This document shows positions 27,433 through 44,615 of a stretch of 64,000 nt of DNA, piece after piece; the first letter of the stretch is position 1, and the number at the start of each line of letters is the position of its first letter. The stretch comes from a virus. Made by a program: the position numbers and the translations under genes. The stretch lies in IMG/VR virus record IMGVR_UViG_3300009151_000035, positions 64,001 to 128,000 of that record; one strand, written 5' to 3'. The notes below the pieces were generated by a model. The model was not told where the DNA came from. It worked only from the letters and a program-made list of their open reading frames with translations, and searched no databases.

Positions 27433-28041
27433 ATGAAACCATTTGCCAAATATCTAGCAGAAAGTGAACGCACATACGATTATCGTATCAAAATGTGCGG
27501 TCGCATTCCGGACGATCTTGTGCGTCAACTCAAATCAAAACTGGATCAATTTGACCCAGCCAAACTGGGCGACGTCAAGACTACTCCTATTCAAAAGATC
27601 CTCACAGACTTTCCAAACAATCAGAATGACGCTGTGACAATGTTTGATGTGAGTTTCAAGTATCCAGCAATTGAGCCACAGATCAAACAGTTGTTTCAAA
27701 TGCTAGGTGGTGATCCCAATCTTATTGTGATGCAAACACAGCCACACGTGGATGGACTTGTTGATGAGATGGACAAAATTGAATCTGAAAACAAAGACCT
27801 GTTGGCAGACACAGATTACCCTGCAGACAATGCTGAACAACGAGCACTCAAGAAAGACTACTCAGCCGGACCATATGATCATGCTGTGTTGAAGAATGCT
27901 TACCGCAGTGATTTCACAGTGGCTGGTGGTCGGACACCTCCTGCCAAGACCACTAACCAACTTCCCCAGGGCAACAAAAGCCCTATGACCAATATCAAGC
28001 GTCAACCCAAGCCTGCAACCGGCGCCAACCCAAGAGGATAA
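27433..28041 (+). CDS. Putative capsid-internal protein
   Basis: N-terminus MKPFAKYLAE resembles the T4 internal-protein capsid targeting sequence. Confidence 0.5.
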   Translation: MKPFAKYLAESERTYDYRIKMCGRIPDDLVRQLKSKLDQFDPAKLGDVKTTPIQKILTDFPNNQNDAVTMFDVSFKYPAIEPQIKQLFQMLGGDPNLIVMQTQPHVDGLVDEMDKIESENKDLLADTDYPADNAEQRALKKDYSAGPYDHAVLKNAYRSDFTVAGGRTPPAKTTNQLPQGNKSPMTNIKRQPKPATGANPRG

Positions 28042-28045
28042 TGAA

Positions 28046-30289
28046 ATGACATTTTTTTACGACTTAAACAAAAAGCTGGACGAGATTCGTGCCACACCTA
28101 GCAAGACACATGGCCAGTTGAACGAGCAGTCAGCACCTGCGCATAAATCAAAGAGTCAGTTAACACAAGCACTCAATGAGCGTGACATGGGCAAGCACAA
28201 CAATGCCACAACAGGCTTCAAAGCACTGGCTAAGAAAGCTGGCGGCGGTGAAAAAGGCAACAAGATTGCCGGTGCACAATTCCAGAAGATGAAGAAGGCC
28301 GGTCAACTAGAAGAACAAACAGTTGAAGAAAGTCTTAAAGACAAAGCCAAGTTGGTAGGTCATTTGGCCAAAGATATGGCAAGAAAAGGTCTTGAAAAGT
28401 TGGGTCACGGCGACGACGAAGCCATGCGCAAAGATTTGCAAAAGAAAGTGGGCATGCCACAAACAGGCAAGAAGCCTGGCGCTACAGAAGACTATGGCCC
28501 AATGGAAGCTGGTGCTCCAATGACAGGCAAGCAGAAGTCATTTGCTGACAAGATTGCTGTCGCCAAAAAAGAAGTTGACGAGCGCATTGGTGATGTGGCT
28601 GCCGAAGCTATTAAAAATGCATTGAGCCCCAAGCAAAAGAAAATGGCTGCATTGGGCGGCAACCCAAAAAGAATTGATGGTCCTGATCTTGCTGCGTTGC
28701 GCAAAGGTGCTGACATGGGCGAAGATGACGATAATAATCCGTTTACATCATACAAGAAGCCTCGCAAAGACGTTCCTCAAGTTGGGTCAGTTGAACGTGG
28801 TGCCAAGCACGATATCAAACACAGCACCTCAGATCCAAGATATACAGGCCGTACTGTAACACGCCGCACAGATGACCAAGGGCATTCAGTAGGCGCCGAT
28901 GATGATGCAGACACACAAGCAGGACCACGCGGACGCGGACGTCCCAAGGGTACCAAACAAAGTATTGGTGCCAAGGGACCATCAGGTCGTTCAAAGTTGA
29001 TGACAAAAGAAAATGACCGTGATCCAGGCGAATACGATCAAGAAGGCGACATGGCCAAAGACAGTATCAAGACTGTGGTACGTCATGCACAGGCCTTGGA
29101 AAAGATCCTAGGCGACAACGACAACTTGCCAGAATGGGTGCAAGCCAAGTTGGCCAAGATTGAAGGCATGATGACTGCTGTGGATGACTACATGCAGAAT
29201 CAATCCGGCGATGAAGAAATGGCCATGGGCGAAGAGTCTACAAACAAACGTGACAACCGTGCTGAAAAGGCCGGTAAGAAAGTTACCAAGGACATTGAGT
29301 ACGACGAGAAGAAGAAAGATGGGATCCATGGTAAAAAGCGTGGCTCAGAAGATGCCAAGGCCGAAAAAGCCGGTAAGAAAGTAGCCAAGGACATTGAGTA
29401 CGACGAAAAGAAAGACAAAAAAGAAGACAAGCCTAAGAAAGTAAAAGAGCAAGGCGGAGCAGAAACTCCTACAGCATCAAGTGGCTTCAGCTTTGGACAA
29501 GGCATTTACGATTCAATGAATCGTGAACTGGAAAAGATGATTGCTGAATCTATGAGCGTGAACATGAGCGACTCAACCGAAGGTGGCAAGAGTTTGACCA
29601 TCACTGCCACAGACGAAGATGCACTCAAGCTGGCTGGTTTGCTTAAAAATGCAGGCCTGGGTGGCGGTGAGCAAATGGGTCAAGAAATGGGCCACGGTGA
29701 TGAACACGGTCATAGTGAAGAGCCATGCCCAAGTTGCGGCATGAGTGATTGCGGATGTGGCGATATTGACGAAGCCCTAGCTGAAAACAATCCAGATTGG
29801 CCAACTGACCAAACAGGCACAGAAGATGCCATGATGTATAGTGATGGATTGAACGGTCCTAAGTCAACTGGTCAATCACAGGTGCCAGTATTGGCCAGTC
29901 AAGAAGACCGCCAACACACATACGAAGAAGATGAAGCTCTTCGTAGAATGATGGAAATGGCTGGTGTTCAGCAAGACAATCTCAAGCCATGGGAACGCAC
30001 CATGAAAGAAGATGCCGAAGAGGAAGAACTTGACGAAGCTGAGAAATGTTCAGCTTGCGATTGCGATCCATGCGAGTGTGACGAGTCTGTGACAGAAAGT
30101 TTTGAACAGATGCTGAGCCGCATGCGTGACATTGCCGGCATCCGAGAAGCCAAGAAGCCTGACTTCCCCGACTTAGACAAAGATGGCGACAAAAAAGAGC
30201 CAATGAAAAAAGCTGTTGCTGACAAAGAAAAAAAAGTTGAAGAAAGTATATTTGCTTTGACCAATCAATGGCGAGCCTACAAGGGGTAA
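28046..30289 (+). CDS. Large charged modular protein, putative capsid-internal polyprotein
   Basis: Many hydrophobic-x-E sites; AT-hook RGRGRPK; LPEWVQAK module; two Cys clusters; DLDKDGD; RMxxxAG(V/I) repeats. Confidence 0.6.
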   Translation: MTFFYDLNKKLDEIRATPSKTHGQLNEQSAPAHKSKSQLTQALNERDMGKHNNATTGFKALAKKAGGGEKGNKIAGAQFQKMKKAGQLEEQTVEESLKDKAKLVGHLAKDMARKGLEKLGHGDDEAMRKDLQKKVGMPQTGKKPGATEDYGPMEAGAPMTGKQKSFADKIAVAKKEVDERIGDVAAEAIKNALSPKQKKMAALGGNPKRIDGPDLAALRKGADMGEDDDNNPFTSYKKPRKDVPQVGSVERGAKHDIKHSTSDPRYTGRTVTRRTDDQGHSVGADDDADTQAGPRGRGRPKGTKQSIGAKGPSGRSKLMTKENDRDPGEYDQEGDMAKDSIKTVVRHAQALEKILGDNDNLPEWVQAKLAKIEGMMTAVDDYMQNQSGDEEMAMGEESTNKRDNRAEKAGKKVTKDIEYDEKKKDGIHGKKRGSEDAKAEKAGKKVAKDIEYDEKKDKKEDKPKKVKEQGGAETPTASSGFSFGQGIYDSMNRELEKMIAESMSVNMSDSTEGGKSLTITATDEDALKLAGLLKNAGLGGGEQMGQEMGHGDEHGHSEEPCPSCGMSDCGCGDIDEALAENNPDWPTDQTGTEDAMMYSDGLNGPKSTGQSQVPVLASQEDRQHTYEEDEALRRMMEMAGVQQDNLKPWERTMKEDAEEEELDEAEKCSACDCDPCECDESVTESFEQMLSRMRDIAGIREAKKPDFPDLDKDGDKKEPMKKAVADKEKKVEESIFALTNQWRAYKG
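29261..29417 (+). repeat. Direct repeat (about 55 bp, 99-bp spacing) encoding AEKAGKKV(T/A)KDIEYDEKK
   Basis: Copies start at 29261 and 29360. Confidence 0.85.
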
Positions 30290-30468: not shown

Positions 30469-30767
30469 TGGCTATTCAAGTAATCAAAGACACAGCAGGT
30501 AATGTGTTGTGGACAACAGACAAAGCGCAAATCAATTCTGAAAGCACTAATGTTACCTATCAAGTGTTCGCTACTGCTCTGGGCACTGCTAATGCTGTAG
30601 GTAATCTATATGCAAATGCAGTAAGTGTACCTAACGGAACCACTCAAGAAATTTATGTAGGTGCAGGCAACTATTTGACCTTGACCGGTAACAATTTTAC
30701 TGCTCTTGCATTAGGCACAGCAAGTTCTGCACAAGAAGGTGTGATCGGGTACGGAAGCAACCCATAA
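30468..30767 (+). CDS. Small beta-rich putative virion protein
   Basis: SD AAGGA; composition rich in T/A/G/N. Confidence 0.55.
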   Translation: MAIQVIKDTAGNVLWTTDKAQINSESTNVTYQVFATALGTANAVGNLYANAVSVPNGTTQEIYVGAGNYLTLTGNNFTALALGTASSAQEGVIGYGSNP

Positions 30768-31150
30768 TGCGAGCACAAGAGTTTGTGACTGAGGATCGCA
30801 AAGGTAAAATACCTGGTGGGCATGATCATGCCATGCCCGGTGCCCATACCATGCGTGACAATGGCGGCTACGATCGTATCAATCATATGAATCGCATGAT
30901 GATGGCAGCTGCCATGCATGATGGCAAGAGTAAAAAAGCCATTCCAAGAGATCAAATGGATCCTGCGTCATGGGTTGAAAAATACAACACAGCACATCCA
31001 TACACCAAAGAAGAAGATAATATGATTCATGGTGCCATGAAAACTATTGGTGCAGAAACTATTCACGCAGTATCAGATCATCGCAGCAGAGAACAACCAG
31101 ACACTCACAAGGTCAGTCCTGTGAAAGGCTTTGCAGGATATCCCCGATGA
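30767..31150 (+). CDS. Putative internal protein, paralog A
   Basis: MRAQEFVTE N-terminus; C-terminus SPVKGFAGYPR. Confidence 0.6.
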   Translation: MRAQEFVTEDRKGKIPGGHDHAMPGAHTMRDNGGYDRINHMNRMMMAAAMHDGKSKKAIPRDQMDPASWVEKYNTAHPYTKEEDNMIHGAMKTIGAETIHAVSDHRSREQPDTHKVSPVKGFAGYPR

Positions 31151-31539
31151 GAGCACGAGAATTTTTCAATGAAGGTCGCACAGGATCATTTACTGCTGAT
31201 GTGGGTCGAGCACTGCCTGGAGCTTTTAAAATTCCTGCTTTAAAAAATCAAGATCCGTATTTGCAATATCGTTTTGGTGTTGCCATTGCTGGTGCCAAAG
31301 GTGCGGCAGCTCGTGCCAGAGATGGCGTGCCACCATTTGATGGCAAAGAGTCAGTGTTTGGTGAAAACGAAATTGTTGTGAGTTATGATCCTGAGGCAGA
31401 AGTCTGGATCAAAGATGCGCTCAAGAGCATGGGCATGCCACCTTCAGACGCCATACGCATTGGCACCCAAGCATCGGAAGAAATGTCTGATGTAGATAAA
31501 ATCAGTCCAGTAAAAGCATTTGCTGGCTATCCACGGTAA
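31147..31539 (+). CDS. Putative internal protein, paralog B
   Basis: MRAREFFNE N-terminus; C-terminus SPVKAFAGYPR. Confidence 0.6.
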   Translation: MRAREFFNEGRTGSFTADVGRALPGAFKIPALKNQDPYLQYRFGVAIAGAKGAAARARDGVPPFDGKESVFGENEIVVSYDPEAEVWIKDALKSMGMPPSDAIRIGTQASEEMSDVDKISPVKAFAGYPR

Positions 31540-35155: not shown

Positions 35156-36297
35156 TAACTAAAAGTCCTACATTTTGTCCAGCACCATGGACTAGTCTCA
35201 ACATTGACCAAGCTGGTGAAACCAGCCCGTGTTTTCATTGTGTTGATATGATTGGCAACAACAAAAAAAATACCATCCAAGAAATCATACATGGCGCTAA
35301 AGCAACCAGCATGCGAGAAGCAATGGCACGTGGCGAATGGCATCCAGGGTGCAGTTGGTGTAAACGACTGGAAGAAACCACAGGCACCAGTGGTAGAACC
35401 GTAAGAGGTGCAAGTGAAGAAACACTAGCGGCAATTGACAAGGACATTAACTTTTTTAAATTAGAACATCTAGTGGTTAACTGGAGCAATCTTTGCAACT
35501 TAACCTGTGTGTATTGTAATGACCAAACATCTACTGCCTGGCAAAGTGTTAAAAAAATTCCTATCAATCATGTGAAAAATGAACATGCAGATTTGATTGA
35601 TCTAGCACAAACTCAAGGGCACAACATACAGGGACTTAGTTTGGGTGGAGGAGAACCCTTGCTGCAAAAAGGACTTGAGGTATTTTTAAGCTATCTCAAT
35701 CCTGCCACAGTGTCAGTAATGGTCACAACCAATCTCAGTATGGAGATCACAACCAATCCTATCTATCAGTTATTGAAAACTTGGCCCAAGGTAGAATGGA
35801 TGGTCAGTTTTGACAATGCCCACAAAGAAAAATTTGAATATGTAAGAGACCGAGCAAACTGGGAACAGTTTGTAAAAAACATACGGCAAATGAAACAGGA
35901 TGGACAACGTGTAAACGCACATCCTGCTTACAGTATCTATTGTGCATTGGATCTTGTTGAATATTATGATTTTTGCATTGAAGAAAATTTAGGTGTCTAC
36001 TGGTGTGAACTCAATCATCCAATAGAATTAGACATAAGAAGACACAATCAAAATTTACGACACAGTGCAGTTGCAGCCATTGATCAGGTTCTAACCAAGT
36101 ATGGCGATAAAAAAAGTCTAGCCATTGATGTGCTAAAAACTTATCGCAATACATTACAAGACAATAGTTATCTTCGAGACCAAGAATTTTTCAAACCATC
36201 AAACACACTAAAATGGCATGAGAAAATTGAAAACACTTTGAGCAAAAAAAATAAATTTGTTGATCTGTGGCCAGAGCTGACAAAGGAAATGCAATGA
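35152..36297 (+). CDS. Radical SAM enzyme with N-terminal twitch/SPASM-like domain
   Basis: FCPAPW...SPC...CSWC, then CNLTCVYC and GGGEPLL. Confidence 0.9.
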   Translation: MITKSPTFCPAPWTSLNIDQAGETSPCFHCVDMIGNNKKNTIQEIIHGAKATSMREAMARGEWHPGCSWCKRLEETTGTSGRTVRGASEETLAAIDKDINFFKLEHLVVNWSNLCNLTCVYCNDQTSTAWQSVKKIPINHVKNEHADLIDLAQTQGHNIQGLSLGGGEPLLQKGLEVFLSYLNPATVSVMVTTNLSMEITTNPIYQLLKTWPKVEWMVSFDNAHKEKFEYVRDRANWEQFVKNIRQMKQDGQRVNAHPAYSIYCALDLVEYYDFCIEENLGVYWCELNHPIELDIRRHNQNLRHSAVAAIDQVLTKYGDKKSLAIDVLKTYRNTLQDNSYLRDQEFFKPSNTLKWHEKIENTLSKKNKFVDLWPELTKEMQ

Positions 36298-37043
36298 TGC
36301 CACAGGTCACTACTCCACCTTGGCATAGTAATATCAGTTTGACTGCTGGCAAAACTTATCAATGGTGGCCTACAGATACTGAAGAAAGTTTTGACCGTAT
36401 GATGCAAGATCCTGTACATCGTGCATACTTTCAAGAAAAAGCATGGGATAAGCCAGACACTATTAGCTATAAAATAAACAGTGACGGATTTAGGTCAGAA
36501 GAATTTGATCCTTTGGCTGATAATTTAGTGGCATTGGGTTGCAGCTTTACCATGGGTATTGGATTGCCATACAAAGATTTATGGCCAACTAGATTGGCAC
36601 AAGCGTTAAATTTAAGAGCATGCAACTTTGGATGGGGTGGCGCCAGTTCAGATCAGTGTTTTAGATTGGCCGATTATTGGATTCCACGATTGAAACCAAA
36701 ATTAGTAGTGCTTTTAAATCCGCCACGTGGTCGAATGGAAGTTGTGGTGAATGAGACCACAGGAGAAACTGATACTGTAATGCCCATGAGCAATCACCTG
36801 GATGTGTTTGTTAAAAAATGGTTAAGTGTAGATGCAAATCAACGATTAAATAATCGCAAGAACAGTCTGGCCATTGAAGCTGTATGCAATCAACTCAGCA
36901 TACTATTCTTAAGCTACGAAGCAGATGTCTGGATGAGCCGCAGTAGGGAAGAAGCAGAGTATGCAAGAGACTATATGCATGCTGGACCAAGAGGTCATGC
37001 AACATTTACCGAAAGAATACTGGATGATTGGTCTAAAAAGTAA
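36294..37043 (+). CDS. SGNH-like esterase or acyltransferase
   Basis: YKINSDGFRS, LGCSFTMG.G, GWGGAS, DYMHAG (DxxH). Confidence 0.65.
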   Translation: MMPQVTTPPWHSNISLTAGKTYQWWPTDTEESFDRMMQDPVHRAYFQEKAWDKPDTISYKINSDGFRSEEFDPLADNLVALGCSFTMGIGLPYKDLWPTRLAQALNLRACNFGWGGASSDQCFRLADYWIPRLKPKLVVLLNPPRGRMEVVVNETTGETDTVMPMSNHLDVFVKKWLSVDANQRLNNRKNSLAIEAVCNQLSILFLSYEADVWMSRSREEAEYARDYMHAGPRGHATFTERILDDWSKK

Positions 37044-38607
37044 TTTAGAAACAGTGCTGGTCAAAGCACCACACAGGGTCGAAACATACACTGAACAGGA
37101 ACTCACAGAGTTTGCACTATGCGCTGATCCTGTGACTGGTCCGCTGTATTTCATGGATAACTTTTTCTTTATCCAGCATCCCACACGCGGCAAAATGCTG
37201 TATCATCCTTTTGACTATCAGAAGCGACTGATCCATACCTATCACAACTATAGATATTCAATATCACTGATGCCTCGACAAACAGGCAAGTCAACTTCGG
37301 CAGCTGGATATCTCTTATGGTATGCTATGTTTGTGCCAGACTCAACAATTCTTATTGCTGCACACAAATACACAGGCGCACAAGAAATCATGCAACGTAT
37401 TAGATATGCGTATGAACTGTGCTCCAATCATATTCGAGCAGGTGCTACCAGCTACAACAAAGGTTCGATAGAGTTTGAAAATGGTAGTCGTATTGTTAGT
37501 CAGACCACAACAGAAACAACAGGCCGGGGTATGTCAATCTCATTGCTGTACGCTGACGAATTTGCATTTGTGCGCCCCACCATTGCCAAAGAGTTTTGGA
37601 CTTCAATTTCTCCCACATTGGCCACTGGTGGTAAGGCAATTATCACATCAACCCCCAACTCAGACGAAGATCAGTTTGCATTCTTGTGGAAAGGTGCCAA
37701 CAAATGTGAAGATGAACATGGCAACACCACAGAACTAGGCATCAACGGATTCCGAGCATTTAGATCATACTGGCGCGAACATCCTGACCGTGGTGATGCC
37801 TGGGGTTCAGAACAACTGGCCCAATTGGGCGAAGAACGTTTTCGCAGAGAAATGGATTGCGAATTTGTTATCAACGACGAAACATTGATAGCACCTATCA
37901 AGCTGATGGACTTGGAAGGTGCAGAGCCCATACGTAGAACTGGGCAAGTGCGTTGGTATAAAAATCCTGTAAAAGATGGCATGTATGTAATAGCACTAGA
38001 TCCTAGCTTGGGCACAGGTGGCGACCCTTCTGCTATACAAGTATTTGATGCAAGAACAACGGATCAGATTGCTGAATGGCGGCACAACAAAACTGACATT
38101 CCCACACAAATTAGAATTTTAGCAGACATTGTTAAAGAACTGCATGGTGTAGTGCAAGATGAAAAAAGCATTTACTACTCAGTAGAAAACAACACTATTG
38201 GTGAAGCTGCACTAATCAGCATAGCAGAATATGGCGAACAAAATATTCCTGGGTATTTTCTAAGCGACAACTCGGTACAAGGCACAAGTGGGCGCAAAAT
38301 TCGCAAAGGATTTACAACCACAAACAAAAGCAAAATTGTAGCTTGTAACAAGTTCAAAATTTTAGTAGAGTCTGGGCGAATGAAAATCAACTCAAGGCCC
38401 TTAGTGAGCGAACTCAAAACGTTTGTGGCTATGGGTACCAGTTACGAAGCCAAACCAGGCGAAACAGACGACTTGGTAATGGCCAGTTTGTTAGCTGTGC
38501 GCATGTTAATGATGTTGCAAACCTACCATGCAGACTTGGATACACACTTAAAAGACCACGGAGATATGATTGTTGAGCCGTTTCCATTCATATCAATGAT
38601 GCGCTAA
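37024..38607 (+). CDS. gp17: Terminase large subunit (T4 gp17-like)
   Basis: YQKRLI, MPRQTGKS (Walker A), LLYADEFAF (Walker B), ITSTPN, ALDPSLG.GGD, VENN, DDLVMA; ATG 37024 preferred over 36961. Confidence 0.95.
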   Translation: MIGLKSNLETVLVKAPHRVETYTEQELTEFALCADPVTGPLYFMDNFFFIQHPTRGKMLYHPFDYQKRLIHTYHNYRYSISLMPRQTGKSTSAAGYLLWYAMFVPDSTILIAAHKYTGAQEIMQRIRYAYELCSNHIRAGATSYNKGSIEFENGSRIVSQTTTETTGRGMSISLLYADEFAFVRPTIAKEFWTSISPTLATGGKAIITSTPNSDEDQFAFLWKGANKCEDEHGNTTELGINGFRAFRSYWREHPDRGDAWGSEQLAQLGEERFRREMDCEFVINDETLIAPIKLMDLEGAEPIRRTGQVRWYKNPVKDGMYVIALDPSLGTGGDPSAIQVFDARTTDQIAEWRHNKTDIPTQIRILADIVKELHGVVQDEKSIYYSVENNTIGEAALISIAEYGEQNIPGYFLSDNSVQGTSGRKIRKGFTTTNKSKIVACNKFKILVESGRMKINSRPLVSELKTFVAMGTSYEAKPGETDDLVMASLLAVRMLMMLQTYHADLDTHLKDHGDMIVEPFPFISMMR

Positions 38608-38617
38608 ATAACAAACT

Positions 38618-40984
38618 ATGGCTATAGAAAACATTTCCCAAGACGTTGCTGACTTGCTGGCAACCAAAGACTATGATGTCAAATACACGGACGGGCAAGG
38701 ACAGGATGCCTCACCAGAGGAATCCAAAACATTTGCGTTTGACTGGGTTGCAGGATCTGGCAAAAACTACGGCACAGTGGTAATTGTGCTGGGCGATGAC
38801 AACGACCTGCAATTGTTCTTTGGAGACAATCTGGGCAAAACCATGGAAAATCCCCAGGACAAACTGGACTGGTTTGGCTCAGAACGTGAAACAGGGTTTT
38901 TGCCCGAACTCAAGAACTTTGCTACACAGCACAGATACACATTCAGCCCCAAAGACATCAATCAACTCAAGCATACCATGCAAGGTATGGCTGCCATCAA
39001 AGAAGGTTTATTTGAAGGCTACTATGGCACACGCCGAATCAGCTACGTGGGCCAGCAAACAGAAGCCAGACTGGTGATCAAACACAATCGCATGATCGGC
39101 GAAGATGACAAACGCTATCGTTATGTGGAAAGTTTGTTTATTGAAACTGTGGATGGAGAACGATTCAAACTGCCATTTGTGAAACTGTCAGGTGGCAGAG
39201 CCATGTTAGAACATGTGAAGCAAGGCGGTAGACCATACGACATTCGTGGACAGCACATCAATGAGATTGTGAGTGAAATGGCTGTGTTAAGCAGATTTAA
39301 CCGAGCCAGTCAGCAACGAGTGTTTGAAGGCATCACACAAGAACTGGTAGAAACAGTTCATCACTACTATTCGGAACTGCGTGAAAGTTTACAACACATG
39401 GCCACAGGCCGCGGCTACAGTCAATATTTTGAATCATGGACACCAGCAGATATTGCGGATGAAACTGCCTTGGTAGAAGATCTCAAGACCATGTTTATTG
39501 AACAAACATTAGATGCCAGAATTGAGGCTGCATTGCCCACACTGGCCAAAATACAACAACGAGGAAACGCTATGAAAGAAGCACAAATTTTTGAAAACTG
39601 GGCAAATCAAATCATGGAGGGCACATGGGCCTTGCCAGATACACCAGAAGCACAAGCCAAACTAGATGAACTCATGAGCCAAGAACTCATTGTTGGTCCA
39701 GACGCTACCAATGCCAAAGAACAACTGTATGATATCTTAGGCGATGATCAATTATTTGACATTCTGTCTGACTTGGCTGAACAAGATCCTCGTGCTAACT
39801 GTTGGGATGACACAGATGTTCAAGCTAGATTGCAAGAACTTGGTATTCAAATGAACACCACACCTGACGCTGAACAACAACAGCCTGTGGCACCTCCTGC
39901 TGGCGAACCGGCACCAGGCACTGCTCCTGAACAAGGTATGGCGGAAGGCAGTTCAGAAAACAAATATTCTAACTTATCTAACCGCGGAGTAAATCGTGGA
40001 ATAAATCGTGCCGGTGATGATTTTAACAGATTGATGGATCTTGACCAAGCAGAATCACCACATTATAAAACACAACATCAACAAGATACAAAGCAAAGAC
40101 TAAAAACTCGTCCAATGGCAGGTCCTAAAGGGCAATTACCCGAGCAAGGTATGGCAGAAGATCAGTTGGACGAACTAAGTCCCGGCACACTCAGCAACTA
40201 TGTAAATCAAGCAGTAGATGATGTGGCTGATCGCAGCCATAAAACAGGTTTCCAAAAGGGTGCAAGAGTTGCATTTAATGCAGTGGCCGGCGGACTTCCA
40301 AAATCAGGTAGATTTGAAAAAGATTCTAAGATTGACAATCGCAAAGTTGGCATCAGCCGCGCCATAGGCAGAATGGAAGAAAACACAGAACTCAACGCCA
40401 TGCTGAAATATGCTGGCATTCCGGTGAACGAAAGTCGTATCCATGAAAACTCTGAGTACACCTATGAAAAAGTTGCCAAAATTTTAGCCCGTGAAAAACC
40501 AGGCCTGTCAACAGACAGACACAGCAACGAGTTCTACAGTGCAGTGTATCATGAACTGATTGCCATTGGTATGACACCAAAAGCTGCTCGCAATTTGATC
40601 TCGTATGATAAAGACTTCATGCGTGATGTAGCAAGCACATACGATCATTATCAAACAAATCCCGGGCTGGATGAAAGCAACTCCGGCATGCTCATGCCCG
40701 AAGCAGATCCAATTGCCACAGTAGAAGCCATGCCTGACTTGAGCGCACCAGTTGTGGAAGGTTCATGCAACTCAACCATGGAGGGAGAATACTGCCCCGA
40801 ACACGGCCTGGCCGAATGTGGCATGTATGAAATGGGCACAGTAGCAGGTTCGATGGCACCAGTGATTGGTGAAGCACCACAGGATCCGATCAACTACAAT
40901 GCAGCTATCACCGGTGCCTACTACGAAAGCAAATCTGATACTGCACTATTAGCAAGAATAAAATCACTGGCTTTGCTAAAGTAA
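38618..40984 (+). CDS. Large late protein with a conserved-looking N-terminal half and a modular C-terminal half (putative internal/head protein)
   Basis: TAAATA upstream; repeated PEQGMAE linkers; LxE sites; ELNAMLKYAGI; Cys/His cluster; C-terminal LARIKSLA. Confidence 0.65.
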   Translation: MAIENISQDVADLLATKDYDVKYTDGQGQDASPEESKTFAFDWVAGSGKNYGTVVIVLGDDNDLQLFFGDNLGKTMENPQDKLDWFGSERETGFLPELKNFATQHRYTFSPKDINQLKHTMQGMAAIKEGLFEGYYGTRRISYVGQQTEARLVIKHNRMIGEDDKRYRYVESLFIETVDGERFKLPFVKLSGGRAMLEHVKQGGRPYDIRGQHINEIVSEMAVLSRFNRASQQRVFEGITQELVETVHHYYSELRESLQHMATGRGYSQYFESWTPADIADETALVEDLKTMFIEQTLDARIEAALPTLAKIQQRGNAMKEAQIFENWANQIMEGTWALPDTPEAQAKLDELMSQELIVGPDATNAKEQLYDILGDDQLFDILSDLAEQDPRANCWDDTDVQARLQELGIQMNTTPDAEQQQPVAPPAGEPAPGTAPEQGMAEGSSENKYSNLSNRGVNRGINRAGDDFNRLMDLDQAESPHYKTQHQQDTKQRLKTRPMAGPKGQLPEQGMAEDQLDELSPGTLSNYVNQAVDDVADRSHKTGFQKGARVAFNAVAGGLPKSGRFEKDSKIDNRKVGISRAIGRMEENTELNAMLKYAGIPVNESRIHENSEYTYEKVAKILAREKPGLSTDRHSNEFYSAVYHELIAIGMTPKAARNLISYDKDFMRDVASTYDHYQTNPGLDESNSGMLMPEADPIATVEAMPDLSAPVVEGSCNSTMEGEYCPEHGLAECGMYEMGTVAGSMAPVIGEAPQDPINYNAAITGAYYESKSDTALLARIKSLALLK
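39926..40160 (+). repeat. Two 22-bp direct repeats (CCYGARCAAGGTATGGCRGAAG) encoding PEQGMAE, 213 bp apart
   Basis: Copies at 39926-39947 and 40139-40160. Confidence 0.8.
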
Positions 40985-40998
40985 CACAATAGGCAATC

Positions 40999-42006
40999 AT
41001 GCATGAGGTAGCACCATTCCCAGGTGGTGATCCGTTTATTTTTTCAATGCCTCAATGGTTACCCATAGTTCAGAATCACCAATCAACTGAACTATGGGTT
41101 CCTTTTTGGTGGACTAATTCGAAAGAGATTAAAAAGTATATAAAAACTCACTTAGTCAAAAAATTAGTTTTTTATGATCTATTTCATGCTCATCCTGGAC
41201 CTGATCAATCTTGCCTTAACATAGTTCGGCATTATCAAAAACTTATACCAACGGTGTTAGTAACAGCTTGTAAAACACCCATACCTGGTATAGACAATAT
41301 TTTGCATTTTGATTTTTACTGGAATCGCACCAAATATGCATATCTTGACAAACAGTCAAGTTGGAAACAACAATCGCCAGACAACTACAATCAATGGCCT
41401 GTAGAATTAACTAGACGTCCCGGTGCCATACTTTCTTTGTATGGAACAAATAATTGGGGGCTCAAGCAACATTTATATCATCAGATTAAACACGTTTCTG
41501 GATATCACGGCGGATATGATGTTAACAATACAAGTTTGCCCAGTGAGACTGGTATTAACGATCTGACCAGGTTGCAGGCAACACCACCGGCTAGAAAATA
41601 TTTTGACAATACATACATATCAGCACAAGTTGAGTCATTATGCAAAGGGCCCACTATATTGTATTCAGAGAAAACATATGATCATTTGATACAGGGAAGA
41701 TTTGTAATGAATTTTGGCCCAAGACATTTTTATCGTACTCTTGTGAATGATGGATGGAAACTACCAGTTGGTATAGATTATGAGTGGGATGATATAGAAG
41801 ATCATCATAATGATTCACATAAGATTGCCACTGAACCTAGATTTCGGGCTTACATCCGATGTCTATTAGAGTTGTCATCCAACATGGAACAACTACACGA
41901 ACTGTTTGTTACTAATCGTGATGTGTTTGCTCACAACCATGAGCAACTCTGGCAAAAGCCCTATGATATTATCAGTTTAGAACAACTTGCTCATAAATAC
42001 ACTTGA
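40999..42006 (+). CDS. Putative glycosyltransferase (GT10/GT-B-like)
   Basis: ISAQVES....YSEKTYD.L..G.F..NFG......L...GW; AT-rich insert. Confidence 0.5.
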   Translation: MHEVAPFPGGDPFIFSMPQWLPIVQNHQSTELWVPFWWTNSKEIKKYIKTHLVKKLVFYDLFHAHPGPDQSCLNIVRHYQKLIPTVLVTACKTPIPGIDNILHFDFYWNRTKYAYLDKQSSWKQQSPDNYNQWPVELTRRPGAILSLYGTNNWGLKQHLYHQIKHVSGYHGGYDVNNTSLPSETGINDLTRLQATPPARKYFDNTYISAQVESLCKGPTILYSEKTYDHLIQGRFVMNFGPRHFYRTLVNDGWKLPVGIDYEWDDIEDHHNDSHKIATEPRFRAYIRCLLELSSNMEQLHELFVTNRDVFAHNHEQLWQKPYDIISLEQLAHKYT

Positions 42007-42031
42007 CACCAAGGCAAATAGCGCATATACT
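42003..42031 (+). promoter_or_regulatory. Sigma70-like promoter TTGACA-17-TATACT for the gp32 operon (late-type TAAATA also at 41994)
   Basis: Consensus hexamers with a 17-bp spacer. Confidence 0.8.
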
Positions 42032-42128
42032 ACATGGTGTATGCGCTTTATTGTTTGTGCGTCACAGGCAACAAAGATCTAATTTTAGATAGGCAACACA
42101 TAGGCAACTTTTTTAGGAGAAACAAACT

Positions 42129-43124
42129 ATGGCATCTTTAGCAGAAATCCGAGCAAGACTACAGGCAGCTGAAAACAAAGGCAACTCAAACCAAGGTGGA
42201 GGCGATCGAGCAATTTATCCACACTGGAATATGGAAGAAGGTCAATCGGCCACACTACGCTTCTTACCTGACGGTAACACAAAAAACACATTTTTCTGGG
42301 TCGAACGAGCAATGATCCGACTGCCATTCAACGGCGTCAAAGGAGAAATGGAATCCAAACAAGTATTCGTACAAGTACCCTGCGTGGAAATGTGGGGAGA
42401 CGCTTGCCCGGTACTGGCAGAAGTTCGTACTTGGTTCAAGGACAAGAGCCTTGAGGACATGGGTCGCAAGTACTGGAAAAAACGTTCATATCTGTTCCAA
42501 GGTTTTGTGCGTGAGAATCCCATCTCCGAAGACAAGACTCCGGACAATCCCATCCGCAAGTTCATCATTGGACCTCAACTGTTTACCTTGATCAAGGGTG
42601 CGTTGATGGATCCTGAGCTGGAAGAATTGCCAACTGACTTGATGCGTGGCTTGGACTTCCGTATCACCAAGACCCAAAAGGGTGGCTTTGCTGACTACAA
42701 CAGTTCCAAGTGGGCTAGAAAAGAGTCAGCACTCACAGAAGCTGAACAGGCTGCAATTGAAACTCACGGCTTGTATGACTTAAGCACATTCTTGCCCAAG
42801 CGTCCTGGCGATGTTGAACTGAAGGTGATCAAAGAGATGTTTGAAGCATCAGTAGACGGACAACCATACGACACCGAGCGTTGGGGTCAATACTTTCGTC
42901 CTGCAGGCGTAGCCGCACCCGGTGGTGCTGCCAGCGATGCTGATGACACTCCGGCACCTGCTGCTAAGCCAGCACTGAAGGTGGCTGCACCAGCAGCACC
43001 TGCGGCTGAAGATTCGTTTGATGAAGAACCAGCGTCTGCTGCCGCGCCAGTCACAGCAGCCAAACCTAGTGGTAATGCCCAAGACATTTTGGCCATGATC
43101 CGCGCACGTCAAAACAAGCAGTAA
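42129..43124 (+). CDS. gp32: Single-stranded DNA-binding protein (T4 gp32-like)
   Basis: ATLRFLPDG, CVEMW..ACP, YWKKRSY, G.DFRI.K..KGG.ADY..SKW; acidic Ala/Pro-rich tail; SD AGGAG. Confidence 0.9.
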   Translation: MASLAEIRARLQAAENKGNSNQGGGDRAIYPHWNMEEGQSATLRFLPDGNTKNTFFWVERAMIRLPFNGVKGEMESKQVFVQVPCVEMWGDACPVLAEVRTWFKDKSLEDMGRKYWKKRSYLFQGFVRENPISEDKTPDNPIRKFIIGPQLFTLIKGALMDPELEELPTDLMRGLDFRITKTQKGGFADYNSSKWARKESALTEAEQAAIETHGLYDLSTFLPKRPGDVELKVIKEMFEASVDGQPYDTERWGQYFRPAGVAAPGGAASDADDTPAPAAKPALKVAAPAAPAAEDSFDEEPASAAAPVTAAKPSGNAQDILAMIRARQNKQ

Positions 43125-43750
43125 TGCTGACAGCTCTTGATCAAGAGCTGTTTCCTAAACTTTGTGAAGTGGTAGCAATGCCACTTCACAATCAGTGGAT
43201 TTATTTGATTCAAAAAAATGGAAGCAGTAGTTTGAGATTACAACAAGAACAAAACAATCTTGATGTATTTTGTAATGAACAAATTTTGTCACTTGATTTT
43301 GTAGATGTTTATATCCGAAATCCAAAAGCCAGATATGTAAGTGGAGTCAACACTTATTTGCAACATCTATTTCGAGATCATCCAGAACTTGATGTCAAAA
43401 CTGCCTTATGGTTTGCCAAACGCTACAAATTTTTAAACACACACTATCTGCCACAGTTTCACTGGGTAGCAAATCTAAGTCAGTATCTCAAACCCACAAC
43501 TAAAATACGATTTAGAGATTTAAAAGAGCTTGACAAAATAACTGATTTTCGAGACCGTGCTTTGATTGATCCACCCAGTCAAGATTTTGTAAAAAAATTA
43601 CTTGAAAATGACCCTAGTGCAGAGTTATGGTGGTATTTAGATCAAATCTTGCTTGACTTAGATGGTAAACTGTTGACCTGGCAAGAACTCATTAATCATT
43701 ACAAGAGTAATTATCCAGACATCATAGCACATGTATTGCCCAAGACTTGA
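43124..43750 (+). CDS. Sulfotransferase (Sulfotransfer_2-like)
   Basis: IQKNGSSSL (5'-PSB), IRNPKARYVSG (3'-PB), HYLPQ. Confidence 0.7.
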   Translation: MLTALDQELFPKLCEVVAMPLHNQWIYLIQKNGSSSLRLQQEQNNLDVFCNEQILSLDFVDVYIRNPKARYVSGVNTYLQHLFRDHPELDVKTALWFAKRYKFLNTHYLPQFHWVANLSQYLKPTTKIRFRDLKELDKITDFRDRALIDPPSQDFVKKLLENDPSAELWWYLDQILLDLDGKLLTWQELINHYKSNYPDIIAHVLPKT

Positions 43751-44615
43751 TCATTTTGTTAGATTCAATCCCAATGGTACCGTAAGCCGTTGCGGTCACA
43801 TGGTCAACCCACCGCAGTTTGAAAATCTTGAACAATTAGAATTGAGCAAATGGTTGAGCGACATTAAGGTTAAATTTCAAACAGATATTTGGCCAACTGA
43901 ATGTAGTCGTTGTAGTCAAATTGAACAGCAAGGTAATGACAGTATAAGAACATACGCAATAAAATTAGATCAACAAGAAACACAAGTTGATTATTTACAA
44001 GTAGGTGGAGTATTAGACAATGTATGTAATGCAGCTTGCCAGACTTGTAATCCAAACTGTAGCACTAGAATTGGCAGTTTAATTGGGAAAACTTTTCCTA
44101 TTGTAAACAACAGTGATCAGTTTAAAAATCTTCCACAACAGCGCATTAGACATTTGGATATTAACGGGGGAGAACCCAGTTATAGCAAAAACTACAAAAC
44201 ACTATTGGCCAATTTGCCACCTAACCTTAAAACGTTACGTCTTAATACCAATTGCAATGTGGTGTTGTATGAATTGGTGGACATTGCACAGTCTGGTGTG
44301 AACGTTACTGTTACTGTAAGTTGCGATGGCATTGGTCCAATACACGAGTTCATGCGATGGCCGATCAAGTGGGACACTTTTTATAAAAACTTAATGGTAT
44401 ATAAAACCATGCCAGTAACATTAAATTTGTGGACCACAGTTAGCTGTTTGAATGTCGAGGATTTGCCTAACATACAGGCATTTGCTCAAGAACTTGACAT
44501 TGATCATTCTTATGCATATCTTGAAGAGCCTGCGATTTTAAGTATAAACAATAAAGATCAACAATCAATAGATGCATACATACAAAAACAAAAAGACCTA
44601 AGGGGGATCAAGTGA
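43731..44615 (+). CDS. Radical SAM enzyme with N-terminal twitch-like domain
   Basis: YCPR...VSRC...CSRC, then CNAACQTC and NGGEPS. Confidence 0.85.
   Translation: MYCPRLDHFVRFNPNGTVSRCGHMVNPPQFENLEQLELSKWLSDIKVKFQTDIWPTECSRCSQIEQQGNDSIRTYAIKLDQQETQVDYLQVGGVLDNVCNAACQTCNPNCSTRIGSLIGKTFPIVNNSDQFKNLPQQRIRHLDINGGEPSYSKNYKTLLANLPPNLKTLRLNTNCNVVLYELVDIAQSGVNVTVTVSCDGIGPIHEFMRWPIKWDTFYKNLMVYKTMPVTLNLWTTVSCLNVEDLPNIQAFAQELDIDHSYAYLEEPAILSINNKDQQSIDAYIQKQKDLRGIK

Follow-up and report, generated by a model that had tools for sequence, protein, structure and literature searches.

Linker-framed peptide cassettes in a putative head-associated polyprotein of uncultured giant T4-related phages

The window analyzed here is a 64,000-nucleotide (nt) stretch, positions 64,001 to 128,000 of IMG/VR record IMGVR_UViG_3300009151_000035, an uncultured virus contig of 147.5 kb that is ~42% complete by CheckV. 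The open reading frame (ORF) at 38618-40984 on its plus strand encodes a 788-amino-acid (aa) protein, P0001, and starts 11 nt past the large terminase gene. We consider it probable that this ORF encodes a head-associated polyprotein whose protease-cut linkers double as portable in-frame exchange joints. The predicted layout is a constant 436-aa N-terminal domain (N-domain), a middle part that varies and consists of small in-frame cassettes, and a conserved tail with a scaffold-like C-terminal helix. During head maturation, a gp21-type (S77) protease would cut after the linker Glu and leave separate peptides of 50-120 aa inside the capsid. The linker, ~22 nt long and fixed in frame, would serve as a portable joint at which recombination inserts, deletes and exchanges cassettes without a break in the reading frame. 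Such exchange would operate within one gene, between the genes of head-internal proteins and between phage lineages, as an in-frame counterpart to the modular shuffling mediated by the promoter-early stem-loop (PeSL). Judged from sequence matches, the cassette-linker system is widespread in uncultured giant T4-like phages. An earlier note on this DNA had proposed that the linker may be both a recombination site and a protease site in an array that swaps small injected effector peptides. The architecture and the exchange are largely supported, the proteolysis is plausible, and the effector reading of the cargo is the weakest part of that interpretation.

Cassettes and their boundaries

The variable part of P0001 opens with a cassette between two copies of a 22-nt direct repeat (Table 1). 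The copies are identical at 19 of 22 positions and both encode PEQGMAE in frame, at aa 437-443 and aa 508-514. The two copies start 213 nt apart, which equals 71 codons. Between them, the core of the insert (39948-40138) has a GC content of 37.7% as compared with 45.6% for the gene, the lowest among all the 192-nt windows of the gene. The earlier note's description of a direct repeat around an in-frame, AT-richer insert of 71 codons is thus borne out. A degenerate pattern of the repeat has exactly two matches in the window, where 0.18 would be expected, and none of 100 shuffled sequences reached two; no further match to the pattern was found anywhere in the 147.5-kb contig. A weak third copy at 40796 (CPEHGLAEC) was ruled out as a linker. 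It resembles the repeat because the invariant Cys/His motif of the tail lies there, and it uses GCC/GCT for Ala whereas the true linkers use GCA/GCG. The repeat was also ruled out as the target-site duplication of a transposon, since the cassettes are mutually unrelated and no transposase is encoded; apart from the linker, the cassettes have no common termini. No minus-strand ORF of at least 40 aa was found inside the insert.

Comparison with homologs locates the joints. The search gave 1898 matching proteins at E <= 1e-3; the architecture counts use the 120 that were listed. In many of the listed homologs the N-domain is 90-96% identical, yet the match spans only 56% of the length. P0002 and P0003 are 717 aa long, exactly 71 aa shorter than P0001, and the alignment gap runs from linker to linker. 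Other homologs carry unrelated inserts of 113 or 117 aa at the same joint, each ending in the linker. Segmentation by cutting at [GA][MVILF][ASTE]E yielded 41 segment families in 44 architectures (n=120), in which cassettes recur in varied orders and combinations. Because this segmentation presupposes the motif, the breakpoints were tested independently with clean indels, that is, indels of at least 30 aa taken from pairwise alignments with well-aligned flanks (n=233). Both ends lay within 5 aa of a strict linker in 91 of the 233, as compared with 2.4% under random placement, and both junctions lay directly after [LIVMF]-x-E in 123 of the 233 (53%), as compared with 2.2%. The frequent junction pairs were GMAE/GMAE, AVAE/GMAE and GMAE/RMEE. 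A noisy breakpoint analysis based on ungapped high-scoring segment pairs gave only a 3-fold enrichment and is superseded by the clean-indel analyses. The orthologs are therefore not colinear, and their indels start and stop at the linker, as the earlier note had anticipated.

The exchange is not confined to the first cassette. In the homologs, module D is either absent or swapped for an unrelated module ending in RGMAE, and an alignment of homologs revealed a second, unrelated version of module E that ends in GITE. The earlier note had drawn further module boundaries at sites of the type hydrophobic-x-Glu. This is partly confirmed: indels or modules of homologs begin or end at GRMEE, GLDE, PVNE, CGMYE and PVIGE (followed by N, S, S, M and A, respectively), which cover the MEE, LDE, VNE, MYE and IGE of the note, whereas no boundary support was found in homologs for IHE, VVE and YYE. 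The plain density of hydrophobic-x-Glu sites was discarded as evidence, since it is not higher in the variable part (4.3 per 100 aa in the C-terminal part) than in the constant part (5.0 per 100 aa in the N-domain). Only the specific linker and those hydrophobic-x-Glu sites that fall at homolog breakpoints carry weight.

Cassettes also move between genes and lineages. Shared cassettes are 90-99% identical where the N-domains are only 63-70% identical. A search of the window's 64-aa cassette against longer proteins gave ~95 clusters with 77-95% aa identity and lengths of 213-1605 aa. The N-domain is present in only 27 of 91 cassette-bearing clusters; the others are built on at least eight unrelated N-terminal backbones, and several of these open with leaders (MRFKQIIE, MKITDIVTE, MNLLNLIE) that resemble the T4 capsid-targeting sequence (CTS). 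In nearly all the cassette-bearing clusters QG(M/V)AE frames the cassette on both sides. In a wider pool of 367 linker-bearing proteins, N-terminal clustering gave 66 classes, including a few truncated N-domains. The 350 internal cassettes of this pool fell into 182 families, of which 136 were singletons and 28 occurred in at least two backbones. By this clustering the window's cassette was found in 20 backbone classes, again with a few truncated N-domains among them. At the DNA level, three foreign loci (L059, L051 and L114) match the linker-cassette-linker segment of the window at 90.5%, 90% and 86% identity, respectively, whereas the 45 nt outside either linker are ~50% identical, as in random sequence. 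The homology with these three loci begins and ends inside the linkers. These results support movement of modules between genes, which the earlier note had suggested looking for.

Several further observations concern the same cassettes and their carriers. The cassette DNA (39947-40138) has long identical runs among phages that differ far more in the rest of their genes. An Rfam search of 39700-41100 gave no match. A second, diverged N-domain family (28-34% identity) also carries linker-framed cassettes, the window's cassette included; it comprises P0278, P0282, P0284, P0301 and others, with loci L152, L081 and L130, and its C-termini are like DELARILTIMNHRR or AILRLAGLAK. In some relatives two or three linker-bearing genes are adjacent, with 5, 1 and 4 linkers in L074 and 3 and 6 in L162, and likewise in L086 and L144. 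One backbone group with the window's cassette (P0292 and P0347) has a start, MSDYFFYDLNKK, similar to that of the polyprotein-like 747-aa ORF at 28046-30289 of the window. That ORF has no QG(V/M)AE linker here, and its relatives (e.g., L136, L161 and L088) carry 2-4. Synechococcus phage S-SKS1 encodes an unrelated low-complexity protein of 682 aa (L002:2462-4510, AGH31595.1), in which one module is 42% identical to aa 515-595 (QLDELS...GIGRA), so some modules reach isolated, cultured phages outside the clade.

The nature of the cargo is less clear-cut. For the window's cassette we found no Pfam family, no fold (coil in the AlphaFold2 model) and no neighbor in the ESM Atlas. Recognizable domains do occur now and then in the variable parts of relatives, namely glycine zippers, LysM, ankyrin repeats, the RNA polymerase (RNAP)-binding domain of SutA, OCRE and LPD11. 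Among 44 long relatives, one has LPD11 and a few have ankyrin, LysM, glycine-zipper or SutA RNAP-binding domains. Given these domains, some of the cargo is plausibly host-directed.

The linker as peptide and as DNA

The T4 prohead protease prefers L or I at P3, as in the leader of an internal protein (IP) ending in IAE. Over 554 contexts, the logo of the linker reads (L)-P-E-Q-G-[V 67%, M 22%, L 8%, I 3%]-A-E. The residue after the linker Glu is G in 48%, A in 12%, E in 9% and D in 8% of the contexts, and the one after that is often S. The G-(V/M)-A-E core fits gp21-type cleavage after Glu with a hydrophobic P3. In T4 and in giant phages, prohead proteases cut C-terminal to Glu within short motifs (PMC5694885, PMC9026906). 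In an AlphaFold2 model of aa 435-788, the linkers and the cassette fall in coil of low confidence, with the cassette below 50 in predicted local distance difference test score (pLDDT). The model also has a terminal helix and one helical core predicted with confidence, at about aa 612-684. The S77 protease encoded by this phage, the CTS-like leaders, the disordered linkers and the motif itself together make cleavage at the linker plausible. Three small ORFs of the window have T4-CTS-like leaders (Table 1) and are candidate internal head proteins.

As DNA, the linker has a consensus of ~22 nt, CCN GAR CAA GGT RTG GCR GAA G, in a constant reading frame. Its copies differ at silent sites by transitions (GGT/GGC, GCA/GCG, GAA/GAG, CAA/CAG). 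Codon choice at these sites was examined by an IMG/VR scan with a pattern open to every synonymous Pro, Gly and Ala codon, which returned 90 distinct in-frame sites. Ala was encoded by GCG or GCA in 81 of the 90 linkers (90%) as compared with 44% in host ORFs (p 2e-19), Gly by GGT in 69% as compared with 42% (p 5e-7), and Gln by CAA in 94% as compared with 70%. A smaller set of homologs showed a like trend, with Val as GTG at 16 of 19 sites versus 42%. In a complete 400-kb relative, three linkers in one gene region are identical 15-mers, with zero control matches. The allele L021 lacks the cassette, and its linker looks like a chimera, with a 5' part as in copy 1 of the window and a 3' part as in copy 2. 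The silent-site bias is compatible with a linker that acts as a recombination joint. Together with L021, it fits recombination between linkers, as in the mini-circle model of PeSL, and it also fits linkers that are carried along with their cassettes and share a common origin. The positions where indels end and the codon bias are thus compatible with the recombination site proposed earlier, and descent could explain the codon bias as well.

Constant parts of the protein and gene setting

An exhaustive profile-free search with the N-domain (aa 1-437) as query, clustered at 50% identity, matched 1768 clusters, in each of them at the N-terminus, with total lengths of 172-1442 aa. By PHROGs and tblastn, aa 7-312 are related to jumbo-phage virion structural proteins. 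Among these, PA5oct gp278 is ~25% identical to the N-domain; its gene lies two after terL, and its record annotation states detection by electrospray ionization tandem mass spectrometry (ESI-MS/MS, virions). The AlphaFold2 model of the N-domain has a pLDDT of 84. Its comparison with solved structures gave no convincing match (best E 0.07 with Foldseek, best Z 6.7 with VIA-align), and Pfam gave no family for P0001 at E up to 1. The N-domain was ruled out as the portal, for which a separate ORF exists upstream of the protease.

The tail has the invariant Cys/His motif SCNxTxEGEYCPEHGLxEC (40763-40819), which may bind metal. Its C-terminal helix (40940-40981) ends in LARIKSLALLK. Amphipathic motifs of this kind, with LDRLKELSGMKK and MRRLAGL as further examples, close the sequence in most of the 148 representatives of the family. 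The scaffold protein of the same phage (L001:2107-3201) ends in DLKRLAGL, resembling the C-terminus of the polyprotein, and the 747-aa ORF has two similar motifs internally, RRMMEMAGV and SRMRDIAGI. The shared C-terminal motif may well be a tag for targeting to the capsid interior.

Table 1. Features of the polyprotein gene and of its surroundings.
Feature	Coordinates	Strand	Remarks
Large terminase subunit gene	36961..38607	+	PHROG terminase large subunit, E 6e-116; directly upstream
Constant N-terminal domain (aa 1-436)	38618..39925	+	virion-protein family; match to PHROG 13484 'virion structural protein'
Linker copy 1 (PEQGMAE then G)	39926..39947	+	homology breakpoint versus cassette-less homologs and foreign cassette-bearing genes
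Mobile 64-aa cassette (aa 444-507)	39947..40138	+	AT-richer, predicted disordered; not in P0002, P0003, P0005, P0006, P0009, P0012
Linker copy 2 (PEQGMAE then D)	40139..40160	+	22-nt repeat; homology breakpoint versus foreign cassette-bearing genes
Module D (aa 515-588, start DQLDE, end GRMEE)	40160..40381	+	replaceable
Module E (aa 589-686, start NTELNAMLKYAGI, end GLDE)	40382..40675	+	two alternative versions among homologs
Conserved tail (aa 687-788)	40676..40981	+	invariant Cys/His motif and C-terminal amphipathic helix
Small ORF	27433-28041		leader MKPFAKYLAE, T4-CTS-like, ends LAE
Small ORF	30767-31150		leader MRAQEFVTE, T4-CTS-like, ends VTE
Small ORF	31147-31539		leader MRAREFFNE, T4-CTS-like, ends FNE
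Prohead protease, gp21-type (S77)	G000:C1:45981-46436		PF03420 match, 83.5 bits (cut-off 27); gene at G000:C1:45936-46574; adjoins scaffold and gp23-like major capsid protein genes

Synteny with the terminase gene is kept in relatives: of 33 related loci, 32 have a terL homolog on the same strand that ends less than 400 nt upstream. The contig carries a T4-like head module with portal, a small ORF, an acidic 289-aa ORF, Peptidase_S77, a 364-aa scaffold-like protein and a major capsid protein of the gp23 family; it also has a tail sheath, a tail tube and a gp32-like single-stranded DNA-binding protein. Based on this gene content, the source is taken to be an uncultured giant T4-related myovirus. 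The S77 protease is also encoded in all five other large linker-bearing contigs, making six of six with this one. A megablast search of 36000-44000 against phage records gave no match.

Alternative explanations and known systems

Four other explanations have to be weighed against a polyprotein with cut, exchangeable cassettes. The linker could be a purely peptide-level feature, with illegitimate or short-homology recombination occurring anywhere, only the in-frame products joined at module borders surviving, and silent similarity reflecting descent. Descent would be expected to leave synonymous variation that consists of transitions only, as observed among the copies, and many boundaries lie at RMEE, GITE or VVGE, which have no DNA likeness to the main linker; ~22 nt is also short for efficient recombination. 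We nevertheless regard this account as rather unlikely, since a strong silent-site bias is present at 90 sites in many unrelated genes, the homology blocks stop within the linker instead of some codons off, one genome has three identical linkers, and the L021 allele is chimeric for the window's two copies. Held here as tentative, and as less likely than not, is the boldest reading, in which the linker is dual-coded. The peptide would be a prohead-protease site and the DNA a dedicated frame-locked recombination joint, a 'coding PeSL'. Throughout a large clade of giant T4-like phages, all genes of head-internal polyproteins would thereby belong to a single network that exchanges injected peptides. 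If true, the dual-coded linker would be an undescribed diversification system for proteins delivered with phage DNA, probably against host defenses.

The two accounts that question the fate of the cassettes differ in whether the linker is cut. It seems unlikely that the linker stays intact as a flexible spacer or docking motif, in a beads-on-a-string internal or scaffold-like protein of the virion or prohead. The invariant Glu, the hydrophobic P3 and the small P1' match prohead-protease sites (PMC5694885, PMC9026906), all six large contigs encode the S77 protease, and the same linker is found in proteins with T4-CTS-like leaders. What speaks for an uncut chain is that the C-terminal part is largely predicted to be disordered, that the scaffold-like helix of the tail suggests anchoring of the entire chain, and that the virion RNA polymerase of N4 is a large polyvalent protein packaged unprocessed (PMC5512222). 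If the cassettes are cut but not injected, they could be disposable scaffold or core filler that leaves the head before DNA packaging, like T4 gp22, and their variability would reflect weak constraint. The singletons (136 of 182 cassette families) agree with this, as does a window cassette that is predicted disordered and lacks a family or fold; multiple sites in the propeptides of giant phages are thought to help clearance (PMC5694885). The same cassette is 77-95% identical over very different backbones and lineages, however, which argues for a specific function, and the ankyrin, LysM, SutA RNAP-binding and LPD11 domains in the variable part of some members speak against filler, an explanation we hold to be somewhat improbable. 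Finally, the mosaic architectures could be chimeras of metagenome assembly at a short repeat, and the relatives do all come from metagenomic assemblies. This is very improbable: the repeat is imperfect and below typical assembly k-mers, the same architectures occur in independent samples (e.g., L033-L038), terL synteny is kept in 32 of 33 loci, and the reading frames are preserved throughout.

The preferred reading of a head-associated polyprotein with cut linkers and in-frame exchange has its own points against it. The P3 residue of the linker is mostly V or M, whereas the T4 rule is L or I; the papers cited above state no more than a cut after Glu in a short motif. CTS-like N-termini among linker-bearing proteins, at 24% versus a background of 20%, are not significantly enriched in what is a crude test. 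The linker occurs in just one gene of this genome, and with ~22 mismatched nt it is short for homologous recombination. Within one shared cassette the identical-codon fraction is 0.69-0.76, similar to the best-conserved parts of the N-domain; therefore, not all cassette sharing is recent. The silent-site bias could be explained by common descent, as noted above, and the cassette, having no detectable fold or family, may play a filler role. Cleavage, head residence, ejection of the products and an effector role are inferred, and the linker DNA may either promote recombination or just mark the recombinants that survive.

The cargo of giant phages that enters the cell alongside the DNA is a largely unknown field. 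Should the linker be cut, the cassette families, which number in the hundreds (182 in a small sample, most of them seen once), would be candidate injected peptides that could be found with no more than a motif of 7 residues. The combinatorial exchange would then show how a payload can be diversified quickly without gene breakage, and the modular-shuffling idea of T4 would extend from intergenic DNA to coding sequence, with one sequence selected both as peptide and as DNA. In practice, the constant domain and the linker could guide the packaging of foreign peptides in T4-like heads, a use to which the T4 capsid-targeting sequence has already been put.

No description of the linker peptide was found in the searchable literature, where the matches were only papers on alpha-synuclein. 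The 'undescribed' system of the earlier note holds in that respect, but it has clear precedents in the T-even IP locus, PeSL shuffling and polyvalent proteins. A more distant parallel is offered by the MuF-type polymorphic toxins of temperate phages, in which a head-morphogenesis N-domain encoded beside packaging genes precedes variable C-terminal cargo. The polyprotein likewise has a constant N-domain encoded beside packaging genes and variable cargo. It differs in having no MuF domain by Pfam, and several linker-framed cassettes with a conserved tail in place of a single toxin domain. In the giant phages phiKZ, 201phi2-1 and SPN3US, many head proteins are cut after Glu, at multiple sites each, by a gp21-related protease (PMC5694885, PMC9026906). 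Multiple short Glu-ending motifs per protein are shared with the present system, for which cleavage is predicted. In the giant-phage head and ejection proteins, however, the motifs are (S/A/G)-x-E, and the two papers describe no cassette arrays, DNA joint or exchange between genes (PMC5694885, PMC9026906).

The polyvalent proteins of phages and conjugative elements (Iyer et al. 2017, PMC5512222) combine 2 to 15 distinct conflict-related domains in a single polypeptide, with hallmarks such as zincin-like MPTase, ART or DdrB-ParB. The likeness lies in large mosaic proteins, domain shuffling, predicted travel with the DNA, and the polyvalent-protein domain LPD11 in one member of the present family. 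Their domains are sizeable and enzymatic, often with an embedded peptidase, and the searched parts of PMC5512222 describe no common linker. The cassettes studied here are mostly peptides of 50-120 aa that have no known domains, share one fixed linker and are presumably cut in trans, and P0001 has no hallmark polyvalent domain and no embedded peptidase (Pfam, E up to 1). In T4-type phages, PeSLs lie between genes as regulatory motifs and shift entire ORFs (PMC2839356, PMC4122927). In both systems short conserved direct repeats flank a variable module, the module-less allele has a single, apparently chimeric repeat, and the same module occurs in different contexts; the mini-circle model of excision and reinsertion would fit the pattern seen here. 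The linker differs in that it is coding, ~22 nt long, frame-locked and under selection at the peptide level, and is not a promoter with a stem-loop.

The closest functional relatives would be the T4 internal proteins IPI, IPII, IPIII and Alt, which carry a capsid-targeting sequence, are processed by gp21 after Glu and are ejected with the DNA (PMC9026906). The IP locus is polymorphic among T-even phages (Repoila et al. 1994, as cited in PMC4122927). The present proteins share hypervariability between relatives and a protease of the gp21 family, and are presumably head-internal and processed; small neighboring ORFs of this phage have T4-CTS-like leaders, and the adjacent multi-linker genes of L074, L162/L086 and L144 recall the clustering of the T4 IP genes. 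Whereas T4 has separate small genes, each with a 10-aa N-terminal leader, one ORF here strings many cassettes together behind the 436-aa domain or another backbone. P0001 begins with that conserved, folded domain and has no such leader, which other linker-bearing backbones and the three small ORFs do have. What is repeated is a linker inside the protein, and exchange takes place in frame inside genes. The polyprotein system thus resembles T4 internal proteins, PeSL shuffling and polyvalent proteins combined, and by their defining features it is a member of none of the three.

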